From assembly GCA_964517425.1 (NCBI GenBank), contig CAZFFM010000001.1, positions 1 through 36,174 on the forward strand: 36,174 nt of DNA, read 5' to 3'. Each line of letters starts with the position of its first letter. The stretch's first letter is position 1. Shown here piece by piece: positions 7,529 to 35,627 of the stretch. The notes beneath the pieces were generated by a model, which was not told where the DNA came from, did not search any database, and saw only the letters and a program-made list of their open reading frames with translations. The translations under genes were made by a program, and so were the position numbers. Source of the DNA: an uncultured Ardenticatenales bacterium. GTDB lineage: Bacteria; Chloroflexota; Anaerolineae; Ardenticatenales; JAADHH01.

Positions 7529-7840
7529 CTATTTCTCGATGTCGGCGCGCCGAGCAGCCAGACGATAGGCTTCGAACCGCGCTCTCTTCGCGATGGCCAC
7601 AACGGCTACTTCCTGAACGTCTTCATTCACGCGGTAGACAACACGGAAACGCTTGCCGGAAAAAGGCAATGCACGGTATCCGGTCAAATCGTAACCCGCT
7701 CTGTGACCCAGTGTTTTTCCGGCCATCGGGTGCATTGCCAGCTTACGCAACTGTTTGACAGCTTGGTGCTGCACCCCCTTGTCCAATCTGGTCAGATCAG
7801 ACCGGACCTCCGGATGAAGTTTTACCCGATAGGAAGCCAT
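7529..7840 (-). CDS. RelE/ParE family toxin
   Basis: 103 aa. YRVKLHPEVRSDL...FRVVYRVNEDVQEVAVVAIAKR is a typical RelE/ParE layout. The gene begins 4 nt after the antitoxin gene ends. Confidence 0.8.
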   Translation of the reverse strand: MASYRVKLHPEVRSDLTRLDKGVQHQAVKQLRKLAMHPMAGKTLGHRAGYDLTGYRALPFSGKRFRVVYRVNEDVQEVAVVAIAKRARFEAYRLAARRADIEK

Positions 7841-7844
7841 TTTG

Positions 7845-8132
7845 CTACCCTTCGATACCTAACTCTTGAAGTACTTCATCCAGATCCCGATATGCCTCTT
7901 CCCCCACCTGTTCCCTTTCTTCGATGAGCCGTCCAAGCATCAAGTGATCCACAAGTTCTTCCAGCTCCAGCAAACGTTTGTATTCCTCAAGACTGGTGAG
8001 CACGGCTTCGATCTTGCCATGCCGCTGGATGAACCAGCGGTGCTCGGATAGGTCGTCCAGTAGTTTGGCGAATTGAGCAGTGGCTTTCGTGCTGGTAATC
8101 AATTCATTAGGAGAAAGGAGAATTTCAGCCAT
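7845..8132 (-). CDS. Phd/YefM-type antitoxin
   Basis: 95 aa. The N-terminal pattern (TKATAQFAKLLDDL....IQRHGKIEAVLTSLEEYKRL) resembles Phd/YefM, and the gene lies upstream of the RelE-like gene. Confidence 0.75.
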   Translation of the reverse strand: MAEILLSPNELITSTKATAQFAKLLDDLSEHRWFIQRHGKIEAVLTSLEEYKRLLELEELVDHLMLGRLIEEREQVGEEAYRDLDEVLQELGIEG

Positions 8133-8434: not shown

Positions 8435-9817
8435 TTACCCCTCAAATGCTTCCTTGCCCGCTTGCTCACCCAGATCCAGCGGGTACCGGCCGGTGAAGCA
8501 GGCGTTGCAATATGCCTCGCTTGCCTCGCCAATGGCCCGCATCATCCCCGCCTGTGAAAGATAGGCCAGGCTGTCGCAGCCCAGGTGCTGCTTGATTTCC
8601 GGCACGGTCATGCGGCTGGCGATCAGCTCGCCATGCCCGGCCATGTCCACGCCCATGAAGCAGGGGTGGCGGATGGGGGGCGACGACACGCGGATGTGTA
8701 CCTCGGCCGCCCCCGATTGTCGCAAGAGCTGCACGAGCGGCCCGCTGGTCGTACCGCGCACGATGGAATCGTCCACCAGAATGACCCGCTTGCCGGCCAG
8801 GTTGTCGGTCAGCGGGTTGAACTTGAGGGCCACACCGGCGCGCCGCAGGCGGTCACTCGGCTGGATGAAGGTGCGTCCGATGTAGCGGTTCTTGATCAGC
8901 CCCTCGGTGAAGGGAATGCCCGATTCCAGCGCGTAACCGATCGCGGCCGGGATCGCCGAATCGGGCACGGCAACCACCACGTCGCCGGCCACCGGGTGTT
9001 CGCGAGCCACTTCGCGTCCCAACGCCTGGCGCACCTGGTGGATGACGTGTCCGTCGAACAGGCTATCGGGTCGCGCGAAGTAGATGTGCTCGAAGGTGCA
9101 GAGCGAGCGCTTCTCCGGCGGCCGGCCCTGCAGCGTGCGCAAGCCGTGATCATCCACGCTGATGATTTCCCCCGGCTCGATCTCGCGCACGTACTCCGCG
9201 CCGATCGTATCGAGCGCGCACGATTCGGAGGCAATCGCCCAGCCGCCGCCCAGCCGGCCGTAGCAGAGCGGGCGGAAGCCCCACGGGTCGCGCACGGCAT
9301 AGACCGCCTCGCGGGTGAGGATCACCAGCGAATAGGCCCCTTCTGCGCGCCACATGAAGGACGCGATCCGCGCTTCCCACGTCTCCCCCTTGCACCCGGC
9401 CAGGGCCTGCGTGATCACCTCGCTATCGGACGAGGAACGCAGGCCCACGCCACTTTGCAAGAGGTCACGGCGCAGCGAGGCGGCGTTGGTCAAGTTGCCG
9501 TTGTGCGCCACCGCCAGCGGACCGTGCCACGTCTCGATCAGGTAGGGCTGCGCGTTTTGCAACTTCGAGCTCCCACTCGTCGAATAGCGCGTGTGGCCGA
9601 CGGCGATATGTCCCTGCAAGGGGTGCAGGTTCTCTTCGGTGAAGACCTGGGCGACCATGCCCATGGCCTTATAGACGTTGGCAATGTGCCCATCGCTGGT
9701 GGCAATGCCGGCGCTCTCCTGCCCCCGGTGCTGCAACGAGTAGAGCGCAAAGTACGTCAGGCGGGCCACATCCTCTTCCGGCGCGTAAATCCCTACAACA
9801 CCACACGATTCTTTCAA
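8435..9817 (-). CDS. purF: Amidophosphoribosyltransferase
   Basis: CGVVGIY catalytic N-terminal Cys, an Ntn-amidotransferase domain and a PRT domain (VILVDDSIVRGTT). The likely start is the TTG at 9817 (M-K-E-S-C), with GGAGGT 3-4 nt upstream. The ORF-track start at 9925 lies in a heptad array. Confidence 0.9.
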   Translation of the reverse strand: MKESCGVVGIYAPEEDVARLTYFALYSLQHRGQESAGIATSDGHIANVYKAMGMVAQVFTEENLHPLQGHIAVGHTRYSTSGSSKLQNAQPYLIETWHGPLAVAHNGNLTNAASLRRDLLQSGVGLRSSSDSEVITQALAGCKGETWEARIASFMWRAEGAYSLVILTREAVYAVRDPWGFRPLCYGRLGGGWAIASESCALDTIGAEYVREIEPGEIISVDDHGLRTLQGRPPEKRSLCTFEHIYFARPDSLFDGHVIHQVRQALGREVAREHPVAGDVVVAVPDSAIPAAIGYALESGIPFTEGLIKNRYIGRTFIQPSDRLRRAGVALKFNPLTDNLAGKRVILVDDSIVRGTTSGPLVQLLRQSGAAEVHIRVSSPPIRHPCFMGVDMAGHGELIASRMTVPEIKQHLGCDSLAYLSQAGMMRAIGEASEAYCNACFTGRYPLDLGEQAGKEAFEG

Positions 9818-9887
9818 GATACCTCCGGTTTGAATTAGACAGCTCCAAATGTGCGCCCTTGGGCCAAACGGTTTTGAAAACGGACAA

Positions 9888-9936
9888 CGTGTTGCGTGCT
9901 GCGTATTGCGTCGCTCCACGCTCACCGCTCCACGCC
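9888..9936. repeat. Heptanucleotide array, 7 in-register units
   Basis: The units are cgtgttg cgtgctg cgtattg cgtcgct ccacgct caccgct ccacgcc, in the purF leader. Confidence 0.8.
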
Positions 9937-9982
9937 ATCTCTACTTGGTGAAGGTCTCCTGACCAAGCCCTGTTCGGTTCGG

Positions 9983-10642
9983 TCAGGAGACCTCGGCGAG
10001 CGAGCGGAGAGATCTCCCGATAGAATCAATCATTGCTGTGGCCTTTGCTCGAAACTCGTTGGCTCTCATCTCTGGACACATCTTGGCCAATGCCCCCAAC
10101 GATAAACTCTTTTGGTCAAGCTGTTCGATATCTAATCGAGTCATCAAGTAAAATCGCCACTGATCGAGGTCGAGTGCATCCCATCTATCAGGGTCTTTCT
10201 CAATTTGCACGCAAAACACGTAAATGTCCGCGTTGTACGTTGCAGTACGAGCATACTGATTCGTCCGCGTATTCAACCTCCGTCCCTTCAAGCCGGCGAA
10301 GACGATACGTGAGGGTTGCTTCTGTGCCCAGGCCTGCAAATACGCAGAAGTCTTGACTTCGATCCTTACTCCGCCTCGTGCCACCAGATCACACTCGCCC
10401 CAAGAATCACGCATGCTTAACGGTATGTCAAGCAACTTGGCAACCATCCACTCAGCAAAGACGCCGCGAACGTCGTTCATCTGTAAGTTGCTGAAAGCCC
10501 AACTCCAGAAATCCAGAACTGTGACATTTTCTAAAGACTCAATCGAACTATGACTATGTAGTCGTTCATTCCCCGTGAACATAACGAGTGGTGTAGTCCC
10601 TTTTGCATCTCTTTGAAAGTCGCTACTTCGAAACTCGATCAT
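9983..10642 (-). CDS. Hypothetical protein with a PD-(D/E)xK nuclease-like motif
   Basis: 219 aa and AT-richer than its flanks. The candidate catalytic core is FAEWMVAKLL ... ECDLVARGGVRIEVKTS (D-x10-E-x-K). The start lacks its own SD, but a 6-codon mini-ORF with GGAGGG ends in an ATGA overlap on it. Confidence 0.55.
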   Translation of the reverse strand: MIEFRSSDFQRDAKGTTPLVMFTGNERLHSHSSIESLENVTVLDFWSWAFSNLQMNDVRGVFAEWMVAKLLDIPLSMRDSWGECDLVARGGVRIEVKTSAYLQAWAQKQPSRIVFAGLKGRRLNTRTNQYARTATYNADIYVFCVQIEKDPDRWDALDLDQWRFYLMTRLDIEQLDQKSLSLGALAKMCPEMRANEFRAKATAMIDSIGRSLRSLAEVS

Positions 10643-10788
10643 TCTGCTGACCAGAACATCTGCCCAAACCCTCCAAAATACCTATCGCAACCTGGCGGAG
10701 TTTGCCGACCGGCCCAAATAGCCACAACAGCACACGATTCTTTCGCGATATCTCCTGGTTACAGAGTATCTCTCTGCTCCATTTCGTG

Positions 10789-11484
10789 TTAGCAACCATA
10801 CTTCTCAAAATGCGCCTTATTTCTGCCGATAGGTGAGTCAAAGACGATGGACGTAAACTCATTTTGGTCAAGATTTTCCATCACCAATGCCAACCCATCA
10901 AGAGCCTGAATAGCCTCCTTCGCTTTCTCCAAGAGAGTGTGGCTAAACCGGAACTTGTTTTGCGCAGCATCACTTACTACAACGTCAGAAGATCTTTTGT
11001 CCCACACAAGAAACTTAACTGACTTATAGTGGACAACGTGGTTTCGATTTCTTATGAGTTTCCTTAACAATTGATATGCATTTTCGTCCTTGGGAAAATC
11101 TTTTCGTGTTACCAATCTCGTTATCACGACCCATTTGCTAACAACATCCAGTTTGTCAAGGTGTGCCTTTACAAAGCTATCAGTAAGGTTCCGGGCGGCA
11201 TAATCGTAGATATAACTCTCTACGGCCAAGGCAGAGAAAACGATAGCGATTAAACAACTATCGTCTTCCTCATGCTGAAGGGGTGACATTTCTAGATGTT
11301 GAAAGGCCGCTGCTTGATCACCTGTCAAGGTGTCTAGCTCCTTGCTTAGACTGTTTAGCTTCTCCCTGCACACCAAGGCATAGTTAAGCTTCCTACGAGC
11401 TATTCTTGCATAACTCGAAGCTGCAGTAATACGCGCATCCCATTGTGGATTCACCTCAATCTGGTCGTCTGACGTCTTGATCAT
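10789..11484 (-). CDS. HEPN-like protein (canonical RNxxxH motif), hypothetical
   Basis: The start at ATG 11484 (MIKTSDD) has GGAGGG upstream. The longer ORF to 11649 overlaps purE in another frame. The motif is LRKLIRNRNHVVHYK, preceded by the helix IAIVFSALAVESYIYDY. The gene is AT-rich and overlaps the purE 3-prime end by 29 nt. Confidence 0.6.
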   Translation of the reverse strand: MIKTSDDQIEVNPQWDARITAASSYARIARRKLNYALVCREKLNSLSKELDTLTGDQAAAFQHLEMSPLQHEEDDSCLIAIVFSALAVESYIYDYAARNLTDSFVKAHLDKLDVVSKWVVITRLVTRKDFPKDENAYQLLRKLIRNRNHVVHYKSVKFLVWDKRSSDVVVSDAAQNKFRFSHTLLEKAKEAIQALDGLALVMENLDQNEFTSIVFDSPIGRNKAHFEKYGC

Positions 11485-12028
11485 CCCTCCCGAGCTGCCC
11501 ACCCTGATCCCGCTGCATGGCCGCCACCCGTTCGCGGATCGCCTCGTCGGCCAGACCGAGCATCTTCGCGGCGAGCAGGGCCGCGCCGGCCGGCGCCAGC
11601 ACGACGGCCGGGGCCACGCCCGACGGCATACGCAGCGAGGAGAAGACATCCACCATCGCCCAGTCCGGCGACAGCGGCGGACAGGCGATGACCGGCGCAG
11701 TCACGTTCGCGTCCACCAGCCCGGACAGCGCGTTCGACCGCCCGGCCACGGTGATGTACACCTTGCGGCGCGGGTCTGCCTCGTACGCCGCCAACATGTC
11801 CAGCAAATGTCGCACGCTCTTGTGCGCGGAAGCCACCCGCAGCTCGCACGGCACACCGAACTCCTCTAGCGCCGCCGCGATCTGCTCCCCGTGCTCCCGA
11901 TCCGACACCGACCCCATGATGATGGGAACGATACAGCCGTTTCGATTTTGGATTTTGGATTTTGGATTTTGGATTTTTCGATTCCCCGCTTCCTGATACG
12001 CATCGCGTGTTGCGTAATCCGTTGACAA
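11456..12028 (-). CDS. purE: N5-carboxyaminoimidazole ribonucleotide mutase
   Basis: Conserved core IVPIIMGSVSD...ASAHK...AGRSNALSG. The only canonical in-frame start upstream of the core is the TTG at 12028, inside a heptad array, so the start is uncertain. Confidence 0.85.
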   Translation of the reverse strand: MSTDYATRDAYQEAGNRKIQNPKSKIQNRNGCIVPIIMGSVSDREHGEQIAAALEEFGVPCELRVASAHKSVRHLLDMLAAYEADPRRKVYITVAGRSNALSGLVDANVTAPVIACPPLSPDWAMVDVFSSLRMPSGVAPAVVLAPAGAALLAAKMLGLADEAIRERVAAMQRDQGGQLGRDDQDVRRPD

Positions 12029-17163: not shown

Positions 17164-17568
17164 CTACACGACCATCGTGATCAACTCAAGTTCCTCAATG
17201 ATCTCAAAATCAGAGGGGTTGTGAGTAATGAGTGGGAGACGATACTGAAGAGCCGTCGCTGCTATCCAGGCATCCTGTGGAGAAATGGGGTGCCCTGCAG
17301 CACGGCAGTTGGCTCGAATATCTCCCCACAAACGACACAGCGCAATATCAAAAGGTAAGACAACGAAGTTGTGGAGGCTTGCCTCTAACCGACGTCTCCG
17401 AAGCACTCCCCAATTGCGTACGGCAGCCCATTGAAACAGCTCGGCCACAGTCATAAAGGAAATCGCCAACCTTCGATTCTCCAGATAGGGCGCATAGGAT
17501 TCTGCACGGCTATCCCCCTTGAACAAGAAAGAAACGATGTTCGTATCGAGCAGAACCGTGTCCATCAA
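17164..17568 (-). CDS. vapC: PIN-domain toxin, VapC family
   Basis: 134 aa with VLLDTNIV and other PIN acidic residues. There is a 4-nt ATGA overlap with the upstream antitoxin gene. Confidence 0.85.
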   Translation of the reverse strand: MMDTVLLDTNIVSFLFKGDSRAESYAPYLENRRLAISFMTVAELFQWAAVRNWGVLRRRRLEASLHNFVVLPFDIALCRLWGDIRANCRAAGHPISPQDAWIAATALQYRLPLITHNPSDFEIIEELELITMVV

Positions 17569-17858
17569 TTCGACCGATCTTCCTGTCGTTGCTGATACAC
17601 ATACTCGATGAAGTCATCAACTGACTCACTTTCGGGCCAAAAATCTACCCGTAAGCTCGCAATGTCCGTGAGTGGTTCGATTTGCTGCGTTTGCACGAAC
17701 TGTTCGAGCGTTCGCGGTTGCCAAAAATCTCCCTCTGGCCCTACAGCAGGATGATAGCTGCGATACAAAGAGTGAGAGATAACCCGTATAAGATTCAACT
17801 GTTCCAGTGGCGATAGTTCTTGCGTTGCTTCAATCATGGTTTGTAGTTTTGTGGTCAT
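17565..17858 (-). CDS. Antitoxin partner of VapC (family not recognised)
   Basis: 97 aa, translationally coupled to vapC, with GGGAGGA RBS and its own promoter and operator upstream. Confidence 0.65.
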   Translation of the reverse strand: MTTKLQTMIEATQELSPLEQLNLIRVISHSLYRSYHPAVGPEGDFWQPRTLEQFVQTQQIEPLTDIASLRVDFWPESESVDDFIEYVYQQRQEDRSN

Positions 17859-29299: not shown

Positions 29300-29578
29300 G
29301 TGCGTGCAGTCCCTCCGTATCTCTTGACGGATCATGCACGAATGGAGATGGCTCGCCGCCAGATCAAAGAGTCAGATATTGCTAGAATCTTGGCCTTACC
29401 TGAGCAAACTGAAAGGGTACGTGAGGGGCGCATGGTCTACCAATCTCGGATAAAGTGTGGAAATCCTCCTAAACTACACCTGCTCAGGGTATTTGTGGAT
29501 GTCGACAGGGATCCCCCGGAGGTCGTAACGGCATACCGGACCAGCAAGGTTAAAAAGTACTGGAGAACTGAACAGTGA
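29300..29578 (+). CDS. DUF4258-like toxin
   Basis: 92 aa with the motif LTDHARMEMARRQIKESDI. The GTG start has AGGAG 6 nt upstream, and there is a GTGA overlap with the next gene. Confidence 0.65.
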   Translation: MRAVPPYLLTDHARMEMARRQIKESDIARILALPEQTERVREGRMVYQSRIKCGNPPKLHLLRVFVDVDRDPPEVVTAYRTSKVKKYWRTEQ

Positions 29579-29781
29579 GAGTCATTTACGACCCCGCGAC
29601 AGATACGTTGACGGTCATCCTGGCTGAAACGCAAGTCGCTGAAAGCGACGAGGATAAACCCGGCGTGATCCTAGACTACGATGCGGGAGGAAGTCTTGTA
29701 TCTCTCGAGATTCTTGACGCCTCTCACCGTGTGGCAGTACCAACCGGCATAGAGTATCAGGTCATGCAAAGAGTCGCATAG
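29575..29781 (+). CDS. DUF2283-like antitoxin
   Basis: 68 aa. YDPATDTLTVIL ... GVILDYDAGGSLVSLEILDAS is the typical DUF2283 pattern. Confidence 0.65.
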   Translation: MRVIYDPATDTLTVILAETQVAESDEDKPGVILDYDAGGSLVSLEILDASHRVAVPTGIEYQVMQRVA

Positions 29782-29805
29782 GGAATGTAGTCGCACACGC
29801 ACGCG

Positions 29806-29874
29806 ATGGTACACGCCGGTGCCACGCGCATCGGGGCCAGCGCCGGTGTGCGCATCGTGGCGCAGGGGGCGTAG
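29806..29874 (+). pseudogene. Duplicated deoC 3-prime end, copy 2
   Basis: Encodes [22 protein letters not shown]-stop. It shows 63 of 69 nt identity to 29189-29257, and 5 of the 6 differences are synonymous. Confidence 0.85.
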
Positions 29875-29892
29875 CGCGAAGGGAGAAGGTGG

Positions 29893-30123
29893 ATGACCAG
29901 TACAGCGATCACACAACAACTTAACGAACAAATTGTACAACTTCCGCTTGGGCTTCAACAAAGGGTTCTTGATTTTGCACAAGCGCTGGTGATTTCTTCT
30001 CCCAAAGGAATCCCGGGAAAGCAACTGCTTCGCTTTGCAGGCACCATGGACCATGATGATATTCGGGCAATCGAACAAGCCATCGAAGCCGGGTGCGAGA
30101 AAGTAGACGTGAATGAATGGTAG
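29893..30123 (+). CDS. Antitoxin partner of VapC (family not recognised)
   Basis: 76 aa, with GGAGAAGG RBS and an 11-nt overlap with the PIN gene. Confidence 0.6.
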   Translation: MTSTAITQQLNEQIVQLPLGLQQRVLDFAQALVISSPKGIPGKQLLRFAGTMDHDDIRAIEQAIEAGCEKVDVNEW

Positions 30124-30502
30124 ATTCCTCTTGGATACAAATGTAATCATTGCGCTTTTTGCGGGAGAGGCCGGCCTTCGGAACCAATTGGAGCAGGCAA
30201 AGGAAGTCTTTGTGCCCACGATTGCACTAGGAGAACTCTACTTCGGAGCTGGAAAGTCCGGACGAGCAAAAGAGAATCTGGGACGGCTGGATGAATTTGC
30301 AGTTAGCGCTTCTGTCCTTGCCTGTGACTTGGGCACGGCGAGAGAGTACGGCGTCATTAAGAACTCATTACGAGAGAAGGGCAGGCCCATCCCCGAGAAT
30401 GACATTTGGATCGCGGCCATTGCCAGGCAGTACGGGTTGACTCTGGTCACCCGAGATGCGCATTTTGACGGAATCAGTGAACTGGCAATGGAGGCCTGGT
30501 AG
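30113..30502 (+). CDS. vapC: PIN-domain toxin, VapC family
   Basis: 129 aa with FLLDTNVIIAL, ENDIWIAA and LVTRDAHF. Confidence 0.85.
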   Translation: MNGRFLLDTNVIIALFAGEAGLRNQLEQAKEVFVPTIALGELYFGAGKSGRAKENLGRLDEFAVSASVLACDLGTAREYGVIKNSLREKGRPIPENDIWIAAIARQYGLTLVTRDAHFDGISELAMEAW

Positions 30503-30543
30503 TCCACGCCGGTTCCACGCGCATCGGGGCGCAGGGGGCGTAG
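30502..30543 (+). pseudogene. Duplicated deoC 3-prime end, copy 3 (with in-frame 24-nt deletion)
   Basis: Encodes VHAGSTRIGAQGA-stop and starts at the last base of the vapC stop codon. Confidence 0.8.
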
Positions 30544-30548
30544 GGCGA

Positions 30549-30604
30549 ATGTCAATTGTCAACGATCAACTTTCAATGGCTAACGTAACACGTAACACGC
30601 AACA
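30549..30604. repeat. Heptad array, 8 units, inverted relative to 11944-12062
   Basis: atgtcaa ttgtcaa cgatcaa ctttcaa tggctaa cgtaaca cgtaaca cgcaaca. The array runs directly into the eutN RBS (GAGGAG). Confidence 0.8.
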
Positions 30605-30615
30605 CGAGGAGCCCC

Positions 30616-30906
30616 ATGCTCATTTGTCGTGTCGTAGGATCGGCGGTTTCGACCGTCAAAGATGAAAAGTTGAAAGGGCTGAAGCTGCTCATTGTCCGTG
30701 AGGTGACGGTGCGCAACCGGCTGGTGGGCAAGCCGCTGGTCGCCGTCGACTCGGTCGGCGCGGGCGAGGGGGAGCTGGTCTTCGTCGCCCAGGGCAGTTC
30801 CGCCCGTCAGACCCACCTGACGCAGAGCGCGCCGGTAGACGCCACGATCATGGCCATCGCCGACTCGTTGGAGGTGGGAGGGAAAGTGACGTATCGTAAG
30901 GCGTAG
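30616..30906 (+). CDS. eutN: BMC vertex (pentamer) protein, EutN/CcmL/PduN family
   Basis: 96 aa with the BMC-P signature MLICRVVGSAVSTVKDEKLKGLKLLIV ... [13 protein letters not shown]. Confidence 0.9.
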   Translation: MLICRVVGSAVSTVKDEKLKGLKLLIVREVTVRNRLVGKPLVAVDSVGAGEGELVFVAQGSSARQTHLTQSAPVDATIMAIADSLEVGGKVTYRKA

Positions 30907-30917
30907 AGGACTGTGAT

Positions 30918-31787
30918 ATGAGTTTCAAAAAGTACACCTCAGGCCAACATACGATCTACCATGGCGATGCTTTGAACGTCCTGCCAACCTTGCAGGACGA
31001 AAGCGTTGACCTGATTTTTGCTGATCCACCATACAACATAGGAAAGCAATTTGCGAGCTTTACTGATAGGTGGTCATCAAATGAAGCTTATGTTGAATGG
31101 TGTAGAAAATGGATCGACCTTTGTGTTCAGAAATTGAACACGACTGGGACAATGTACATAATGGCAAGCACGCAAGGTATGCCCTATATTGACATGCACC
31201 TTCGTGACAAAGTCACAATTCTTTCGCGAATAGTTTGGCACTACGACAGTTCTGGTGTTCAGGCAAGAAGATGTTTTGGTTCCCTGTACGAGCCTATTCT
31301 GCATTGTGTGAAAGACCCTAAAGAGTACACTTTTAATGCCGACCAGATTTTAGTTGAAGCCAGAACAGGCGCAAAAAGGGAACTCGTTGACTATCGAAAA
31401 GTCCCCCCAGTGCTTTATAATACCAAGAAGGTACCTGGTAACGTTTGGTACTTCCCCCGCGTACGCTACCGAATGCCGGAGTATGAGAAGCACCCTTCAC
31501 AGAAACCTGAAGCATTGCTTGAGCGAATCATCGCTGCCAGCAGCAATCCAGGCGATCTAGTCCTGGATCCGTTTGCAGGAACGTTTACAACTTGTGCCGT
31601 CGCAAAGCGTATGGGAAGAACATCAATTGGAATAGAAATCCAGGAGGAATTCATCAAAATCGGTTTGCGAAGGGTTGGCGTGGCCACAACTTACAATGGG
31701 GAAAAACTTAAACCCCCTCAGAAGAACTTCATCCACCGCGCAAAGAAGTCCACACCCCATTCGGTACAACTAGAGCTTGGGGTCTAA
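30918..31787 (+). CDS. Beta-class N6-adenine or N4-cytosine DNA methyltransferase
   Basis: Motif IV FADPPYN precedes motif I LDPFAGTFTT (the beta-class order). The gene is AT-rich and starts 11 nt after the eutN stop. Confidence 0.85.
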   Translation: MSFKKYTSGQHTIYHGDALNVLPTLQDESVDLIFADPPYNIGKQFASFTDRWSSNEAYVEWCRKWIDLCVQKLNTTGTMYIMASTQGMPYIDMHLRDKVTILSRIVWHYDSSGVQARRCFGSLYEPILHCVKDPKEYTFNADQILVEARTGAKRELVDYRKVPPVLYNTKKVPGNVWYFPRVRYRMPEYEKHPSQKPEALLERIIAASSNPGDLVLDPFAGTFTTCAVAKRMGRTSIGIEIQEEFIKIGLRRVGVATTYNGEKLKPPQKNFIHRAKKSTPHSVQLELGV

Positions 31788-32907
31788 GTTTGTGAAAGAG
31801 CATAGCTTTACGCCTGTAATCAGGCAGATACTGTCCGAGGAATTCGGCCCTGCGTATGAAGAAATCTTCAAACAGAGTGAATTGTTGCAGTATCTCAATG
31901 TAAAGACGATCTCAGCCTCTCGTGGGTCAAAGGCCCGTGGTTCATTCGGAAACATCTATGCAATCTACGTGCTGGTCGAGGATTATGTGAGGCGTGGTTT
32001 TCACATTCGTGGGGATTATGAAGATGCCGAGGGAGCACAGTTTTCCGCTCTCTTCAAACGTCAGAGGGGTTTGCCCTTTGGGAGCAGACTCCAAAACCAT
32101 GCTCTCAACCATCGTCTTAATCAGGAATTCAGAAAGTGCTTTCCAATAGCCAATATTCAACCAATACTGCGCGATGCCGAGACTCGCCAGTATTGGATAA
32201 ACGAACACTTGTTAGCGGTCGAGGTACATGAACGAGAGTACAACCTTGCAGAGGCTGTAATCAGAATAATCGATGCTTACGCCGACGCTAAGCAAGAAGC
32301 TTTCAATTCGTTCATTCGCGATTGCGTGAAAATGCAGCACATATCGGACGAAAGCCCTGAAGCAGTGGTAGACTTCATCGCCAATCTGCTGAGGCCCAAA
32401 GTTGATGCACGGATTTTTGAGATTGTGAGCTTCGCAATTTTGAAGGCACATTACGGAGACAAGTCGTTCTTTTGGGGATGGGATATAGACAGCATAGAAG
32501 AAGAAAAGCTCGCTCTATACAAAACGGGGCGTACCAACGCGAACGATGGAGGAATTGACTTTGTGATGCGCCCCCTAGGACGATTCTTCCAAGTGACTGA
32601 AACGCTTGATGTGAGGAAGTATTTCTTGGATATTGACAAAGTACAGAAGTATCCAATCACATTTGTAGTGAAAACAGAAATGGGGATGCCTGAGATAAAG
32701 CAAACCATTGAGAAGCAGGCCGAAGAGCAGTACCCTGTACGTGCTATCGTCAGGCGGTATATGGAATGTATAGAGGAAACCATAAATATACCGACATTGC
32801 TAGAACGGCTGCAAGAAGTTGTGGAGGCAGGAGACCTAAATACAGTCATAAAAGAAATCGTAACGCATAGCAAGGTAGAGTTCAATATGATTGACCAAAA
32901 GACGTAA
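31777..32907 (+). CDS. Putative type II restriction endonuclease
   Basis: 376 aa, AT-rich, and overlapping the methyltransferase gene (TTG 31777, or GTG 31792). The DGGIDFVMRP...QVTETLDVRK segment resembles Mrr-cat/PD-(D/E)xK. The call rests mainly on context. Confidence 0.6.
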   Translation: MGSKFVKEHSFTPVIRQILSEEFGPAYEEIFKQSELLQYLNVKTISASRGSKARGSFGNIYAIYVLVEDYVRRGFHIRGDYEDAEGAQFSALFKRQRGLPFGSRLQNHALNHRLNQEFRKCFPIANIQPILRDAETRQYWINEHLLAVEVHEREYNLAEAVIRIIDAYADAKQEAFNSFIRDCVKMQHISDESPEAVVDFIANLLRPKVDARIFEIVSFAILKAHYGDKSFFWGWDIDSIEEEKLALYKTGRTNANDGGIDFVMRPLGRFFQVTETLDVRKYFLDIDKVQKYPITFVVKTEMGMPEIKQTIEKQAEEQYPVRAIVRRYMECIEETINIPTLLERLQEVVEAGDLNTVIKEIVTHSKVEFNMIDQKT

Positions 32908-33228
32908 CACGCAGGCGGAGGAGGAACTCGTGCCTGTTCAGATGGTAATTGAATTGAGAGAAAAACAGGGAATCCAACCAATTCTTCAATCTATCGAATC
33001 GTACAAAGTGCAACTCACGGCCAGTATCGAGCGCGGCAAACGTCACCTTCGTCAATTTGAGCAACAATACGGCGTGGGTACAAGCTCACTTCTTGCAAGC
33101 GATGACGGCCGAAGACCTGGAAGGTGGTGACCTGGAATACGTAGAATGGGCGGGGGAAGCCAAACTGCTGGAAGCACTGAAAGCTGGGTTGTTGGAACTA
33201 GAGTATGCCAAGTATCACCTTCCCTGAA
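32891..33228 (+). pseudogene. Frameshifted small antitoxin-like gene
   Basis: Frame 1 gives ...RHLRQFEQQYGVGTS and then nonsense. Another frame continues [47 protein letters not shown]-stop. The shift lies near 33077-33085. Confidence 0.5.
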
Positions 33229-33263
33229 TACGCTCAACGGATTGAGCACATTTTGAATCATGT

Positions 33264-33417
33264 GGTCGGCGCGGGCGAGGGGGAGCTGGTCGCCGTCGCT
33301 CAAGGTAGTTCCGCCCGCCAGACCCACCTGACGCAGAGTGCGCCGGTAGACGCCACGATCATGGCCATTGCCGACTCGCTGAAGGTGGGAGGGACCGTGA
33401 CGTATCGTAAGGCGTAA
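33264..33417 (+). pseudogene. Duplicated eutN 3-prime end (51 codons)
   Basis: 141 of 154 nt are identical to 30753-30906 with no indels. It encodes [50 protein letters not shown]-stop. The ORF-track entry 33205..33417 is a chimeric read-in. Confidence 0.85.
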
Positions 33418-33420
33418 TGC

Positions 33421-33765
33421 TTGGGGGAGATGATCGTGATTACTCTTGAGAGGGCAAAAGAAATGATCTCTTCGATGACCCGTGCCGAAAAGGCTCAGGT
33501 TCTACAGTGGGTAGCCCGCGACTTTGGGGAAGCGTTTCCAGGCATCGAGAGCTCACCGCAAGTATCTGGCGGCGAGGCTCACATCGTGCGCACCCGCATT
33601 CCGGTTTGGGTGTTGGTGCAAGCCATGAAGTTGGGAGCAAGCGAAGCAGACTTGCTTAGAATGTACCCAACATTACGTGCAGAGGACTTGGTCAACGCAT
33701 GGGCCTATTATCGCTCGCATCGGGACGAGATTGAGCGACAAATCGTTGAGAATGAAGCGGCGTGA
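33421..33765 (+). CDS. DUF433 antitoxin-like protein
   Basis: The motif is AHIVRTRIPVWVLVQAMKLGASEADLLRMYPTLRAEDLVNAWAYY. The start is ambiguous (TTG 33421, ATG 33430 or GTG 33436). Confidence 0.75.
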   Translation: MGEMIVITLERAKEMISSMTRAEKAQVLQWVARDFGEAFPGIESSPQVSGGEAHIVRTRIPVWVLVQAMKLGASEADLLRMYPTLRAEDLVNAWAYYRSHRDEIERQIVENEAA

Positions 33766-33768
33766 GAC

Positions 33769-34137
33769 ATGGCCCGACTGTTTGCAGACGAGAATTCCCC
33801 CTTGCCTGTTGTCGAAGAACTGCGCCGGCTCGGACACGATGTGCTCACAGTACAGGAAGTCGGCATGGCCAATCAAATGGTTCCAGATAAATCGGTATTA
33901 GACTTTGGGACTGCTGACAATCGAATCGTGTTAACACTCAACCGCAAGCACTTCGTCCACTTGCACAGAAGGTCGTCGGAGCATGAAGGTATTATCGTGT
34001 GCACAGTCGATCTCGACTTCGCCGGTCAGGCCTTGCGCATTCATGAAGCTGTTGGATCGCAGGAGTCGTTGCCTGGAGAACTGATCCGGGTGAACCGGCC
34101 TCGTCAAGGTGGCGAAGTAATTCCGAAGAGGTCGTGA
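33769..34137 (+). CDS. DUF5615 (PIN-like, Mut7-C-related) toxin-like protein
   Basis: The N-terminus RLFADENSPLPVVEELRRLGHDV is typical of DUF5615 partners of DUF433. Confidence 0.7.
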   Translation: MARLFADENSPLPVVEELRRLGHDVLTVQEVGMANQMVPDKSVLDFGTADNRIVLTLNRKHFVHLHRRSSEHEGIIVCTVDLDFAGQALRIHEAVGSQESLPGELIRVNRPRQGGEVIPKRS

Positions 34138-34139
34138 TT

Positions 34140-35627
34140 ATGTCCGCAACGTATGACAAGGACTTGCAGTCCATCCAGGAAGCGCGGCAGCTGGCCGTGG
34201 CTTGCCGCAACGCGCAACGCGAATTCGCCCACTTCTCGCAGGAAGAGGTGGACCGCGTGGTGGCCGCCATGGCCGACGCCGGCTACCGCGCCGCCGAGCG
34301 GCTGGGAGTCATGGCCCACGACGAGACCGGCTACGGCGTGCCCAGCCATAAGAAGCTGAAGAACGAATTCGCCAGCCGCACGGTGTGGGAATCGATCCGC
34401 GACGTGAAGACCGCCGGCGTGATCCGCCGCGACGACGCGCGCGGCATCGTCGAGATCGGCTGGCCGGTGGGCGTCATCGTCGGCCTGACGCCGAGCACGA
34501 ACCCGACATCCACGATCCTGTACAAATCGCTGATCGCCCTCAAAGCGCGCAACGGCATCGTCTTTGCGCCGCACCCTTCGGCCGTGAAGTGCTCGCTGGA
34601 GACGACACGCATCATGGCCGAAGCCGCCCAACACGCCGGCGCACCGGCCGGGCTGCTCGCCTGCATGTCGAAAATCTCCCTGCCCGGTACGCACGAGCTG
34701 ATGGGCCACTGGGCAGTGAACCTGATCCTGGCCACCGGCGGCGCGGCGATGGTGAAGGCCGCGCACAGCGCCGGCAAGCCGGCCTATGGCGTGGGACCGG
34801 GCAACGTCCCGGTCTACGTGGACCGCAGCGCGGATGTGCCCCAGGCCGCCTTCGACATCGTCAACAGCAAATCGTTCGATTGCAGCGTCATCTGCTCGTC
34901 GGAGCAGGCGGTGGTGGCCGACCGCCCCATCGCCGCCCAACTGCGGCGGGAAATGGAGCGCAACGGCGCATACTTCGTGGACCAGGCCCGCGCCGACGCC
35001 CTGGGCCGGCGACTCTTCCGGCCGGACGGCACGAACTGGCCCGAAGTCGTCGGCAAGACACCGCAGCAGTTGGCCGAGATGAGCGGCATTCAGGTGCCGG
35101 GCGACGCGCGCGCCCTGGTCGCCGACCTGAACGCGGTCGGGCCGGAACACCCGCTGTCACGCGAGAAGCTGACCACCGTCCTCGGCTTCTACGAAGAGGA
35201 GGGCTGGATCAAGGGGTGCGAGCGATGCATCGAGCTGCTCAAGTTCGGCGGCGACGGGCACACGCTGGCCATCCACGCGCAGGACGAAGAGGTGATCATG
35301 GCCTTTGGGTTGGAGAAGCCGGCCTTCCGCATCGTGGTCAACACGGCAGCCACCGCCGGCGCCATCGGCCTGACCACCGACCTTGATCCGGCCATGACCC
35401 TGGCCACGGGAGGCATGGGCGGCGGCATCAGCAGCGACAACATAACGGTACGCCACCTGCTGAACACCAAGCGGCTGGCCTACGGCCGGCGTCCCTGGCC
35501 GCTGAAAGCCGAAGCAAAGCGGAGACCGCAAGCGACGAGACCGGCACCAACGGCAACCGGCGGCTATTCCGAGGCCGAGGTCGAGGCCATCGTCCGCCGC
35601 GTGGTGCGGGAGTTAAGAGGGGGATAG
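34140..35627 (+). CDS. Acylating (CoA-dependent) aldehyde dehydrogenase, EutE/PduP-like, with C-terminal encapsulation-peptide-like helix
   Basis: The catalytic region SFDCSVICSSEQAVV can be compared with FDNGxICASEQ. The C-terminus has a Pro/Ala-rich linker and then SEAEVEAIVRRVVRELRGG-stop. The start is ATG 34140 (or GTG 34134). Confidence 0.85.
   Translation: MSATYDKDLQSIQEARQLAVACRNAQREFAHFSQEEVDRVVAAMADAGYRAAERLGVMAHDETGYGVPSHKKLKNEFASRTVWESIRDVKTAGVIRRDDARGIVEIGWPVGVIVGLTPSTNPTSTILYKSLIALKARNGIVFAPHPSAVKCSLETTRIMAEAAQHAGAPAGLLACMSKISLPGTHELMGHWAVNLILATGGAAMVKAAHSAGKPAYGVGPGNVPVYVDRSADVPQAAFDIVNSKSFDCSVICSSEQAVVADRPIAAQLRREMERNGAYFVDQARADALGRRLFRPDGTNWPEVVGKTPQQLAEMSGIQVPGDARALVADLNAVGPEHPLSREKLTTVLGFYEEEGWIKGCERCIELLKFGGDGHTLAIHAQDEEVIMAFGLEKPAFRIVVNTAATAGAIGLTTDLDPAMTLATGGMGGGISSDNITVRHLLNTKRLAYGRRPWPLKAEAKRRPQATRPAPTATGGYSEAEVEAIVRRVVRELRGG

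Follow-up and report, generated by a model that had tools for sequence, protein, structure and literature searches.

HEPN proteins share a described helix topology in which an Rx4H motif sits where a helix ends and a loop begins (PMC3710099), and several described families come close to the protein considered here. The RiboL-PSP-HEPN family (PF18735; Anantharaman et al. 2013) has been described as an L-PSP fusion or within a ParB operon (PMC3710099), the HepT proteins of the HEPN-MNT (HepT/MntA) type II/VII toxin-antitoxin systems are paired with an MNT nucleotidyltransferase, and the HEPN proteins of the PDB 3JRT family, encoded on integron cassettes and reported from Gammaproteobacteria, have been proposed as stress or dormancy ribonucleases (RNases) (PMC3710099). 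Integron cassettes are now known to bear phage-defence genes, according to a preprint (10.1101/2024.07.02.601719). Among PD-(D/E)xK nucleases, the BisI family, to which NhoI and Eco15I belong, consists of restriction enzymes that depend on 5-methylcytosine, that have a methyl-binding (H/R)(V/I/T/M) motif and whose closest Type II relative is PvuII (PMC11347163). The subject of this work is a pair of adjacent genes, A (HEPN-like) and B (PD-(D/E)xK-like), lying between purE and purF in a stretch of 36,174 nucleotides (nt) from an uncultured Ardenticatenales bacterium (GCA_964517425.1, contig CAZFFM010000001.1), hereafter the window, in whose numbering all coordinates and strands are given. The original prediction had proposed A and B as a candidate defence or abortive-infection pair. 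We find it considerably more probable that they are two unrelated single-gene accessory nuclease cassettes, brought in by separate events at a purE-purF insertion hotspot and mutually independent.

Both open reading frames (ORFs) lie on the minus strand, as had been called: gene A, encoding a divergent HEPN-domain protein and predicted RNase, at 10789-11484 (231 residues from ATG 11484), and gene B, encoding a solitary predicted PD-(D/E)xK endonuclease, at 9983-10642 (219 residues from ATG 10642). The suggestion that this island, which is co-oriented with the pur genes, is AT-rich relative to them is borne out by the guanine-cytosine (GC) profile, with a GC fraction of 0.43-0.51 over 10000-11400 against 0.63-0.68 in purE and purF, and its horizontal acquisition by comparison with L172, a Chloroflexi metagenome-assembled genome with ~93% DNA identity to the window that carries no such insert (loci fetched for comparison are given by L numbers). 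Since homology with L172 (blastn, ~93% nucleotide identity) ends at 11503 and restarts at 9830, the low-GC insert between purE and purF can be placed at 9831-11502, a length of 1,672 bp. The A-B locus recurs, with 1 mismatch in ~2 kb, in another metagenome sample (L170) and is thus not an assembly artefact.

The history of the locus can still be read in the 146-nt spacer between the two genes. Some 28 nt separate the stop codon of A from the decayed remains of a purF 5' end, comprising ribosome-binding site and first codons (10716-10760, minus strand). This 45-nt segment matches the intact ribosome-binding site and start of purF at 9787-9831 (minus strand) with 80% identity and forms with it a direct repeat. 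The remnant, which has lost its start codon, also aligns with the purF 5' ends of L172, L173 and L175, and its match score of 20 lies far above that obtained in 300 dinucleotide-preserving shuffles of the island (mean 8.4, standard deviation 1.0, maximum 11; z ~11). The B segment (~9832-10715) is therefore bracketed by two copies of purF 5' sequence, which implies that the purF 5' end was once directly downstream of A. Because a purF remnant occupies the spacer, the A-B junction arose by insertion and was not inherited as part of an operon, whatever the order of events. Hence, A and B came in by two separate insertion events.

The distribution of the two families leads to the same separation. 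Hidden Markov models (HMMs) of both were run on the six-frame ORFs of every locus fetched: for A, 84 loci from metagenomes and look-ups and 2 from IMG/VR; for B, 80 from GTDB species genomes and another 80 from IMG/VR; and, in addition, the extra look-up loci. A and B were found together in none of the 91 other A loci and in none of the 163 other B loci, the only further locus with both genes being L170, which is the same locus; at least 900 nt, enough room for a partner, were present on the B side in 57 of the 91 A loci and on the A side in 157 of the 163 B loci. The closest B homologue (L171, 79% identity) lies between a sulfotransferase gene and a Schlafen/AlbA_2 gene, without A, and the closest A homologues stand alone among unrelated genes, without B. 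In PADLOC-DB v2, neither protein was matched by any family at E up to 1, and no known defence model covers either of them. The proposal of a two-gene system thus fails on co-occurrence, an outcome that the original prediction had itself named beforehand as refuting, as well as on the purF remnant between the genes and on the search for defence models.

Close relatives of A travel as promoterless integron gene cassettes. In an Anaerolineales genome (L001, GCA_016721315.1), an A homologue with 48% identity resides in an array (L001:5830-12084) of at least nine repeats, each 130-140 nt long and placed at intervals of 685-1274 nt, which start with RYYYAAC, end with GTTRRRY and have complementary inner arms, with a compensatory change in one copy. 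These ends, the complementary arms and the compensatory change identify the repeats as attC sites and the array as an integron cassette array. Besides the A homologue, the array carries GNAT, SET and glyoxalase genes and small unknown ORFs, a cargo typical of integron cassette arrays; no integrase was found in the 12.6 kb fetched. A covariance model of the L001 sites located attC sites directly flanking A in L001, L168, L005, L006, L007, L009 and L011. The close relatives of A thus resemble the 3JRT family in being stand-alone HEPN genes borne as gene cassettes. On the other hand, A has no sequence or Foldseek match to that family, the A gene of the window is not in an integron, and the array resolved here belongs to the Anaerolineales, whereas the 3JRT family was reported from Gammaproteobacteria (PMC3710099).

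A distant subclade of the A family has a different setting, at the head of a six-gene operon that encodes the HEPN protein, SSB (PF00436), DUF3467, a Translin-like protein, an unknown protein of ~216 residues and a nucleoside 2-deoxyribosyltransferase-like protein (PF05014). This operon is found at L002:6001-9398 and also in L017, L022, L023, L027, L030, L034, L036, L039, L043, L047, L048, L061, L071 and L072; SSB adjoins A in ~33 of the 84 metagenome A loci, and all five partners are present in 17. A literature search on the HEPN-SSB-DUF3467-Translin operon returned nothing relevant. In a cyanobacterial locus (L165:95-5200, Cyanobacteriota), 23 tRNA genes, one of them called as tRNA-Pyl (anticodon CTA), lie ~800 nt upstream of an A homologue, and a ParE-like toxin-antitoxin module lies directly downstream. 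A 214-residue gene downstream of an A homologue in L165 was considered as a hidden relative of B and ruled out (hhalign probability 0.6%).

Relatives of B are found in prophage lysogeny modules, at tRNA-adjacent sites and on plasmids, mobile contexts that differ from the integron cassettes of the A family. The family is large and spans many phyla, with at least 239 clusters at 90% identity and 186 stretches in GTDB species genomes confirmed by tblastn. IMG/VR holds 98 relatives of B (15 clusters at 80% identity), around which CI repressor/HTH proteins and integrases are enriched: within three genes of these viral homologues we found HTH_3 proteins (9), CI-repressor-type proteins (7), tyrosine integrases (4), serine recombinases (2) and endolysins. 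In Faecalibacterium phage FP_Brigit, the B homologue gp02 lies between the integrase gp01 and the helix-turn-helix protein gp03, all three genes being co-oriented; the integrase-repressor interval is the classic place of lysogen-expressed genes. B occurs on 15 plasmids, and a tRNA gene lies at most 450 nt away in 7 of the 80 genome loci. Two further inserts have the same make-up as the B segment of the window: a B-only insert of ~1 kb bracketed by a 26-nt duplication of a tRNA-Leu 3' end (L110:5682-6719), and another of ~1 kb with ~100-nt flanking repeats that contain a terminator hairpin and a tRNA-like fragment (L145:5590-6700). Flanking repeats above control were nonetheless seen in only 3 of 74 B loci and in 2 A loci, so that they do not amount to a family-wide rule. 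The 149 immediate neighbours of B in the 80 genomes are heterogeneous, with 4 integrases, many housekeeping genes and a few defence genes (GajA, AriA, Type I restriction-modification, mad2 and HEC-05). No recurrent partner and no cognate DNA methyltransferase appears among these 149 neighbours or in the island of the window, and the sole DNA methyltransferase domain among the 25 commonest families of B neighbours is one Type I N6_Mtase.

The assignment of A to the HEPN proteins draws on its motif, on profile matches and on a structural model. The protein contains the RNxxxH motif that had been read from it (IRNRNHVVHYK, R147-x4-H152), and, like that of B, the motif is no chance occurrence, its predicted catalytic residues being conserved: R147, N148, H152 and K154 are present in 91-92 of 93 homologues from A loci, the Rx4H pair (R147, H152) in 92, and all four residues recur in at least 90% of 135 diverse representatives of the family. 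E89 and D94 are kept in 90 of the 93, and K117 is also conserved. A profile search of 1.84 billion representative proteins returned 1,553 family members at E<=1e-3 and 221 at E<=1e-30, and the family comprises ~1,550 clusters at 50% identity. Neither of the two window proteins has a significant match in Pfam, NCBIfam, PHROGs or PADLOC, in keeping with the remark that A is HEPN-like and yet of no recognised named family. PF18735 (HEPN_RiboL-PSP) is the only Pfam family that recurs among members of the A family, in 14 of 33 and in 22 of 135 (best E ~1e-5); these matches cover the Rx4H region, and scattered matches to other HEPN families rank behind them. No member reaches the PF18735 gathering cut-off of 28.4 bits, the best scoring 24.4, and the A protein of the window has no match at all.

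The AlphaFold2 model of A (predicted local distance difference test, pLDDT, 93.8) shows a helical hairpin (13-50 / 55-100), extra helices (102-126), a helix at 135-151, a beta-hairpin and final helices. The Rx4H motif falls at the end of helix 135-151 (helix 3) and the start of the next loop, and E89 and D94 lie in helix 55-100 (helix 2), so that the modelled topology matches the published HEPN description. Foldseek searches of the model against PDB and BFVD yielded generic helical bundles and nothing significant, and the HMM of A had no match among PDB sequences. Taken together, profile and model point to a divergent HEPN protein, closest to PF18735 and yet no member of it. A has in common with RiboL-PSP-HEPN the topology of HEPN proteins and a conserved polar residue after the Rx4H; it differs by its long N-terminal helical hairpin, and the described L-PSP fusion or ParB operon (PMC3710099) is seen in none of the A neighbourhoods examined. 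The same Rx4-6H RNase chemistry as in HEPN-MNT systems can be predicted for A, but there is no adjacent MNT nucleotidyltransferase in the island and no conserved small partner in the clade of the window protein.

For B, the nuclease-like core ECDLVARGGVRIEVK that had been pointed out is indeed present, although the spacing is D85-x9-E95-x-K97 and not D-x10-E-x-K. The reading as a PD-(D/E)xK-like protein outside any named family at threshold agrees with the conservation of the predicted catalytic residues in 162-165 of 165 homologues, viral ones included (E64 in 162, D85 in 163, E95 in 165, K97 in 163), and with structural matches to endonucleases. Many B homologues carry the precomputed Pfam family PF26887, of which no mention was found in the literature. 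In the AlphaFold2 model (pLDDT 90.7), the ExK motif lies on strand 93-100, and the top 15 Foldseek matches in PDB are all PD-(D/E)xK endonucleases. Their probabilities start at 1.0, stay at 0.82 or above for the first 11 and fall to 0.28; the E values are only 2e-3 to 1.5e-1, and the target template modelling (TM) scores are 0.44-0.54 except for the last, SfiI, at 0.24. The best match is the homing endonuclease I-Ssp6803I (PDB 2OST; E 1.8e-3, probability 1.0, target TM 0.50), and the Eco15I N-terminal domain, NhoI and PvuII are among the others.

With the BisI family, B shares the PD-(D/E)xK fold (Foldseek probability 0.82-1.0 over the chains listed) and an AEWLV-like helix motif, and a helix glutamate, an aspartate and an (E/Q)xK are in register, with E, D and ExK of the B profile aligned to E, AD and QIK of Eco15I (alignment E 0.29). 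NhoI is similarly small (chains of 151-168 residues), and the lack of a cognate methyltransferase is a trait that B shares with modification-dependent enzymes. A significant sequence match to the family and its Q(V/I)K catalytic motif (PMC11347163) are both missing from B, which in addition has ~50 extra residues at each end. Neither I-Ssp6803I, which is a PD-(D/E)xK homing enzyme with the best fold match whereas B is not intron-encoded, nor PvuII, which unlike B has a partner methyltransferase, shows significant sequence similarity to B. Fold and motif therefore place B, as far as a model can, among PD-(D/E)xK endonucleases of a PvuII/BisI-like structural class, and not as a member of the BisI family by sequence.

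How these observations are to be interpreted depends on the weight given to several competing accounts. That A and B might form a lineage-specific two-gene defence or abortive-infection system, with an HEPN RNase and a DNase, is suggested by their being adjacent, co-oriented and both low in GC, by the intact catalytic residues of both predicted nucleases, and by the stability of the arrangement in two samples. Against this stand the complete lack of co-occurrence elsewhere, with the closest homologues of each gene lacking the other, the purF 5' remnant that serves as spacer and marks a junction born of insertion, the contrast between an integron cassette on one side and a prophage or tRNA islet on the other, and the failure to match any PADLOC family; we consider such a system highly improbable. 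A housekeeping role for A in nucleic-acid metabolism, its presence here being neutral hitch-hiking, would fit the conserved operon with SSB, DUF3467, Translin-like and nucleoside 2-deoxyribosyltransferase-like genes headed by the distant subclade, and the lack of an antitoxin-like partner beside A in the window clade. That clade, however, is patchy, cassette-borne with attC sites and low in GC, and the closest relative lacks it, all of which marks an accessory rather than a core gene, and HEPN integron cassettes have been proposed as stress or dormancy RNases (PMC3710099), so that the housekeeping account appears improbable, if not to the same degree as the pair. Somewhat more credible, but still unlikely, is the notion that B is a selfish homing-type endonuclease gene, an element of ~0.9-1 kb that would spread by cutting conserved targets, for instance the 5' ends of genes and the 3' ends of tRNAs, and would not serve defence. 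Its top structural match is a homing endonuclease, its family extends across many phyla, phages and plasmids, and the ~1-kb B-only inserts in the window (purF 5' end), L110 (tRNA-Leu 3' end) and L145 are bracketed by target duplications. Yet homing does not normally duplicate its target, a duplicated tRNA 3' end typically betrays insertion by an integrase (and integrases do occur among the neighbours of B), flanking repeats exceed the control in just a few loci, B lies outside any intron or intein, and the position between integrase and repressor in a lysogeny module fits a function expressed in the lysogen.

Two independent nuclease cassettes remain the account that we favour, and several observations weigh against it. 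The HEPN assignment of A is made from profile matches below threshold plus a motif, and the best solved HEPN structure retrieved by Foldseek, HepT (6m6u, chain 6m6u_G), has an E value of 0.6. No attC site was detected in the window at E up to 1 with a covariance model that represents one attC type only. In 34 of the 91 other A loci, fewer than 900 nt are available downstream of A, too short for a B-side neighbour to be seen, and a local functional interaction between A and B is not strictly contradicted by the zero co-occurrence elsewhere. As regards B, its sequence similarity to the BisI family is weak (the Eco15I alignment given above), its fold match is borderline by E value (~2e-3, TM 0.33-0.54), and it has ExK (E-V-K) where the BisI family has QxK; the suggestion that its target would most likely be DNA with a modification foreign to the host, as for a Type IV-like, BisI-like enzyme, is purely inferential.

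If A and B are indeed independent cassettes, either could be a toxin or defence gene that works alone. By analogy with other cassette-borne HEPN proteins, A would be a metal-independent RNase acting as a self-contained growth-arresting or abortive-infection toxin, and its toxicity might be restrained by its dimer state or within its own polypeptide, where the long helical hairpin at the N terminus would play this part. B would be a dimeric, Mg-dependent DNA endonuclease able to restrict incoming DNA alone, and it would have to tolerate the N4/N6 DNA methyltransferase encoded by the window genome itself (30918-31787). On a wider scale, it is conceivable, albeit doubtful, that each gene on its own represents an uncharacterised single-protein immunity module, A standing for a large family of partner-less, cassette-borne HEPN RNases of Chloroflexota and other phyla and B for a widespread, distantly BisI-like nuclease family, placed by temperate phages between integrase and repressor genes to protect their lysogens. 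On this view, B may recognise a DNA modification other than the known BisI specificity, Gm5CNGC. A bolder reading would treat the ~1-kb B-only inserts with target duplications as minimal mobile units that are moved either in trans or by their own nuclease.

Expression of the two genes from the pur transcript, as had been supposed, is plausible. No promoter-like site was found on the coding strand of the island, where terminator and promoter counts are no higher than in shuffled sequence, and since A and B lack an evident promoter and are co-oriented with purE and purF, joint transcription with these genes, purF lying downstream of both, is probable. An inverted repeat with 18-nt arms and a 6-nt loop (9952-9993) overlaps the B stop codon; it is devoid of a T-run and was not called as an intrinsic terminator, and it may stabilise or attenuate the transcript. 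The borders of the reading frames require some adjustment. The purE gene (11456-12028, minus strand) has a 3' end of island origin (11456-11502, minus strand), as seen from C-termini and junction DNA in comparison with L172, L173 and L175: its last 15 codons and stop are island sequence, in place of the 11-codon tail of L172. The claim that A starts within the purE 3' end stands insofar as ATG 11484 overlaps purE, but homologues begin ~9 codons later, which fits GTG 11457, one base past the purE stop; translational coupling of A to purE is possible because of this spacing. For B, the gene caller and the lengths of homologues favour a start at M21 (10582), which would give 199 residues, and ATG 10582 is thus more likely to be the real start. 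Similarly, the longest purF ORF opens at GTG 9925, whereas alignment with relatives favours TTG 9817 (MKESCGVVGI) as the most likely start; the stop codon of B lies 165 nt upstream of it.

The removal of a false lead is the most immediate outcome of this analysis, for the adjacency of A and B turns out to be an accident of stacking in a hotspot, with the scar of the second insertion still readable. It also provides a context for two large unannotated families, one of HEPN proteins on integron cassettes outside Proteobacteria and one of solitary restriction-like nucleases in the lysogeny module of temperate phages, both of which are candidates for single-gene defence or toxin functions. More generally, the intergenic gaps of the core nad-pur cluster can take toxin-antitoxin and nuclease cargo in Chloroflexota.

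The gene order in this part of the window, all on the minus strand, is nadC, nadA, nadB, purE, A, B, purF, a Phd/ParE pair and purD, and the closest relatives of its purE are Chloroflexota/Anaerolineae sequences. A second low-GC insert, in the purF-purD gap, is formed by the Phd/YefM antitoxin (7845-8132) and ParE/RelE toxin (7529-7840) genes. In L172, purE is followed after 100 bp by purF, and this after 95 bp by purD, with neither the A-B nor the Phd/ParE insert; its nadB-purE gap (L172:3116-5812) holds 2.9 kb absent from the window, encoding a DUF4258 protein, a 107-residue ORF and a 654-residue unknown protein. L173 and L174 show a 4-nt overlap of purE and purF, and in L175 (~82% identity) the purE-purF gap (L175:6443-7617) contains genes for a TumE-like protein, an 80-residue ORF and, on the other strand, a DUF433 protein. 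The purE-purF gap is therefore an insertion hotspot for small accessory cargo, and the different cargo held by L172, L175 and the window identifies the nad-pur intergenic gaps as landing pads.

Rfam and tRNA scans of the window found no RNA genes. Small low-GC inserts recur throughout it. The N6_N4 DNA methyltransferase gene mentioned above (GC 0.46) overlaps by 11 nt a 376-residue ORF (31777-32907) that has no Pfam match, and the two probably constitute a Type II restriction-modification pair, located inside a larger low-GC island (~29400-34200). Two islets of toxin-antitoxin type complete this inventory: one at 17164-17858, with a PIN-domain protein (17164-17568) and an upstream 97-residue ORF (17565-17858), and another at 33421-34137, where a DUF5615 protein (33769-34137) is preceded by a 114-residue ORF.

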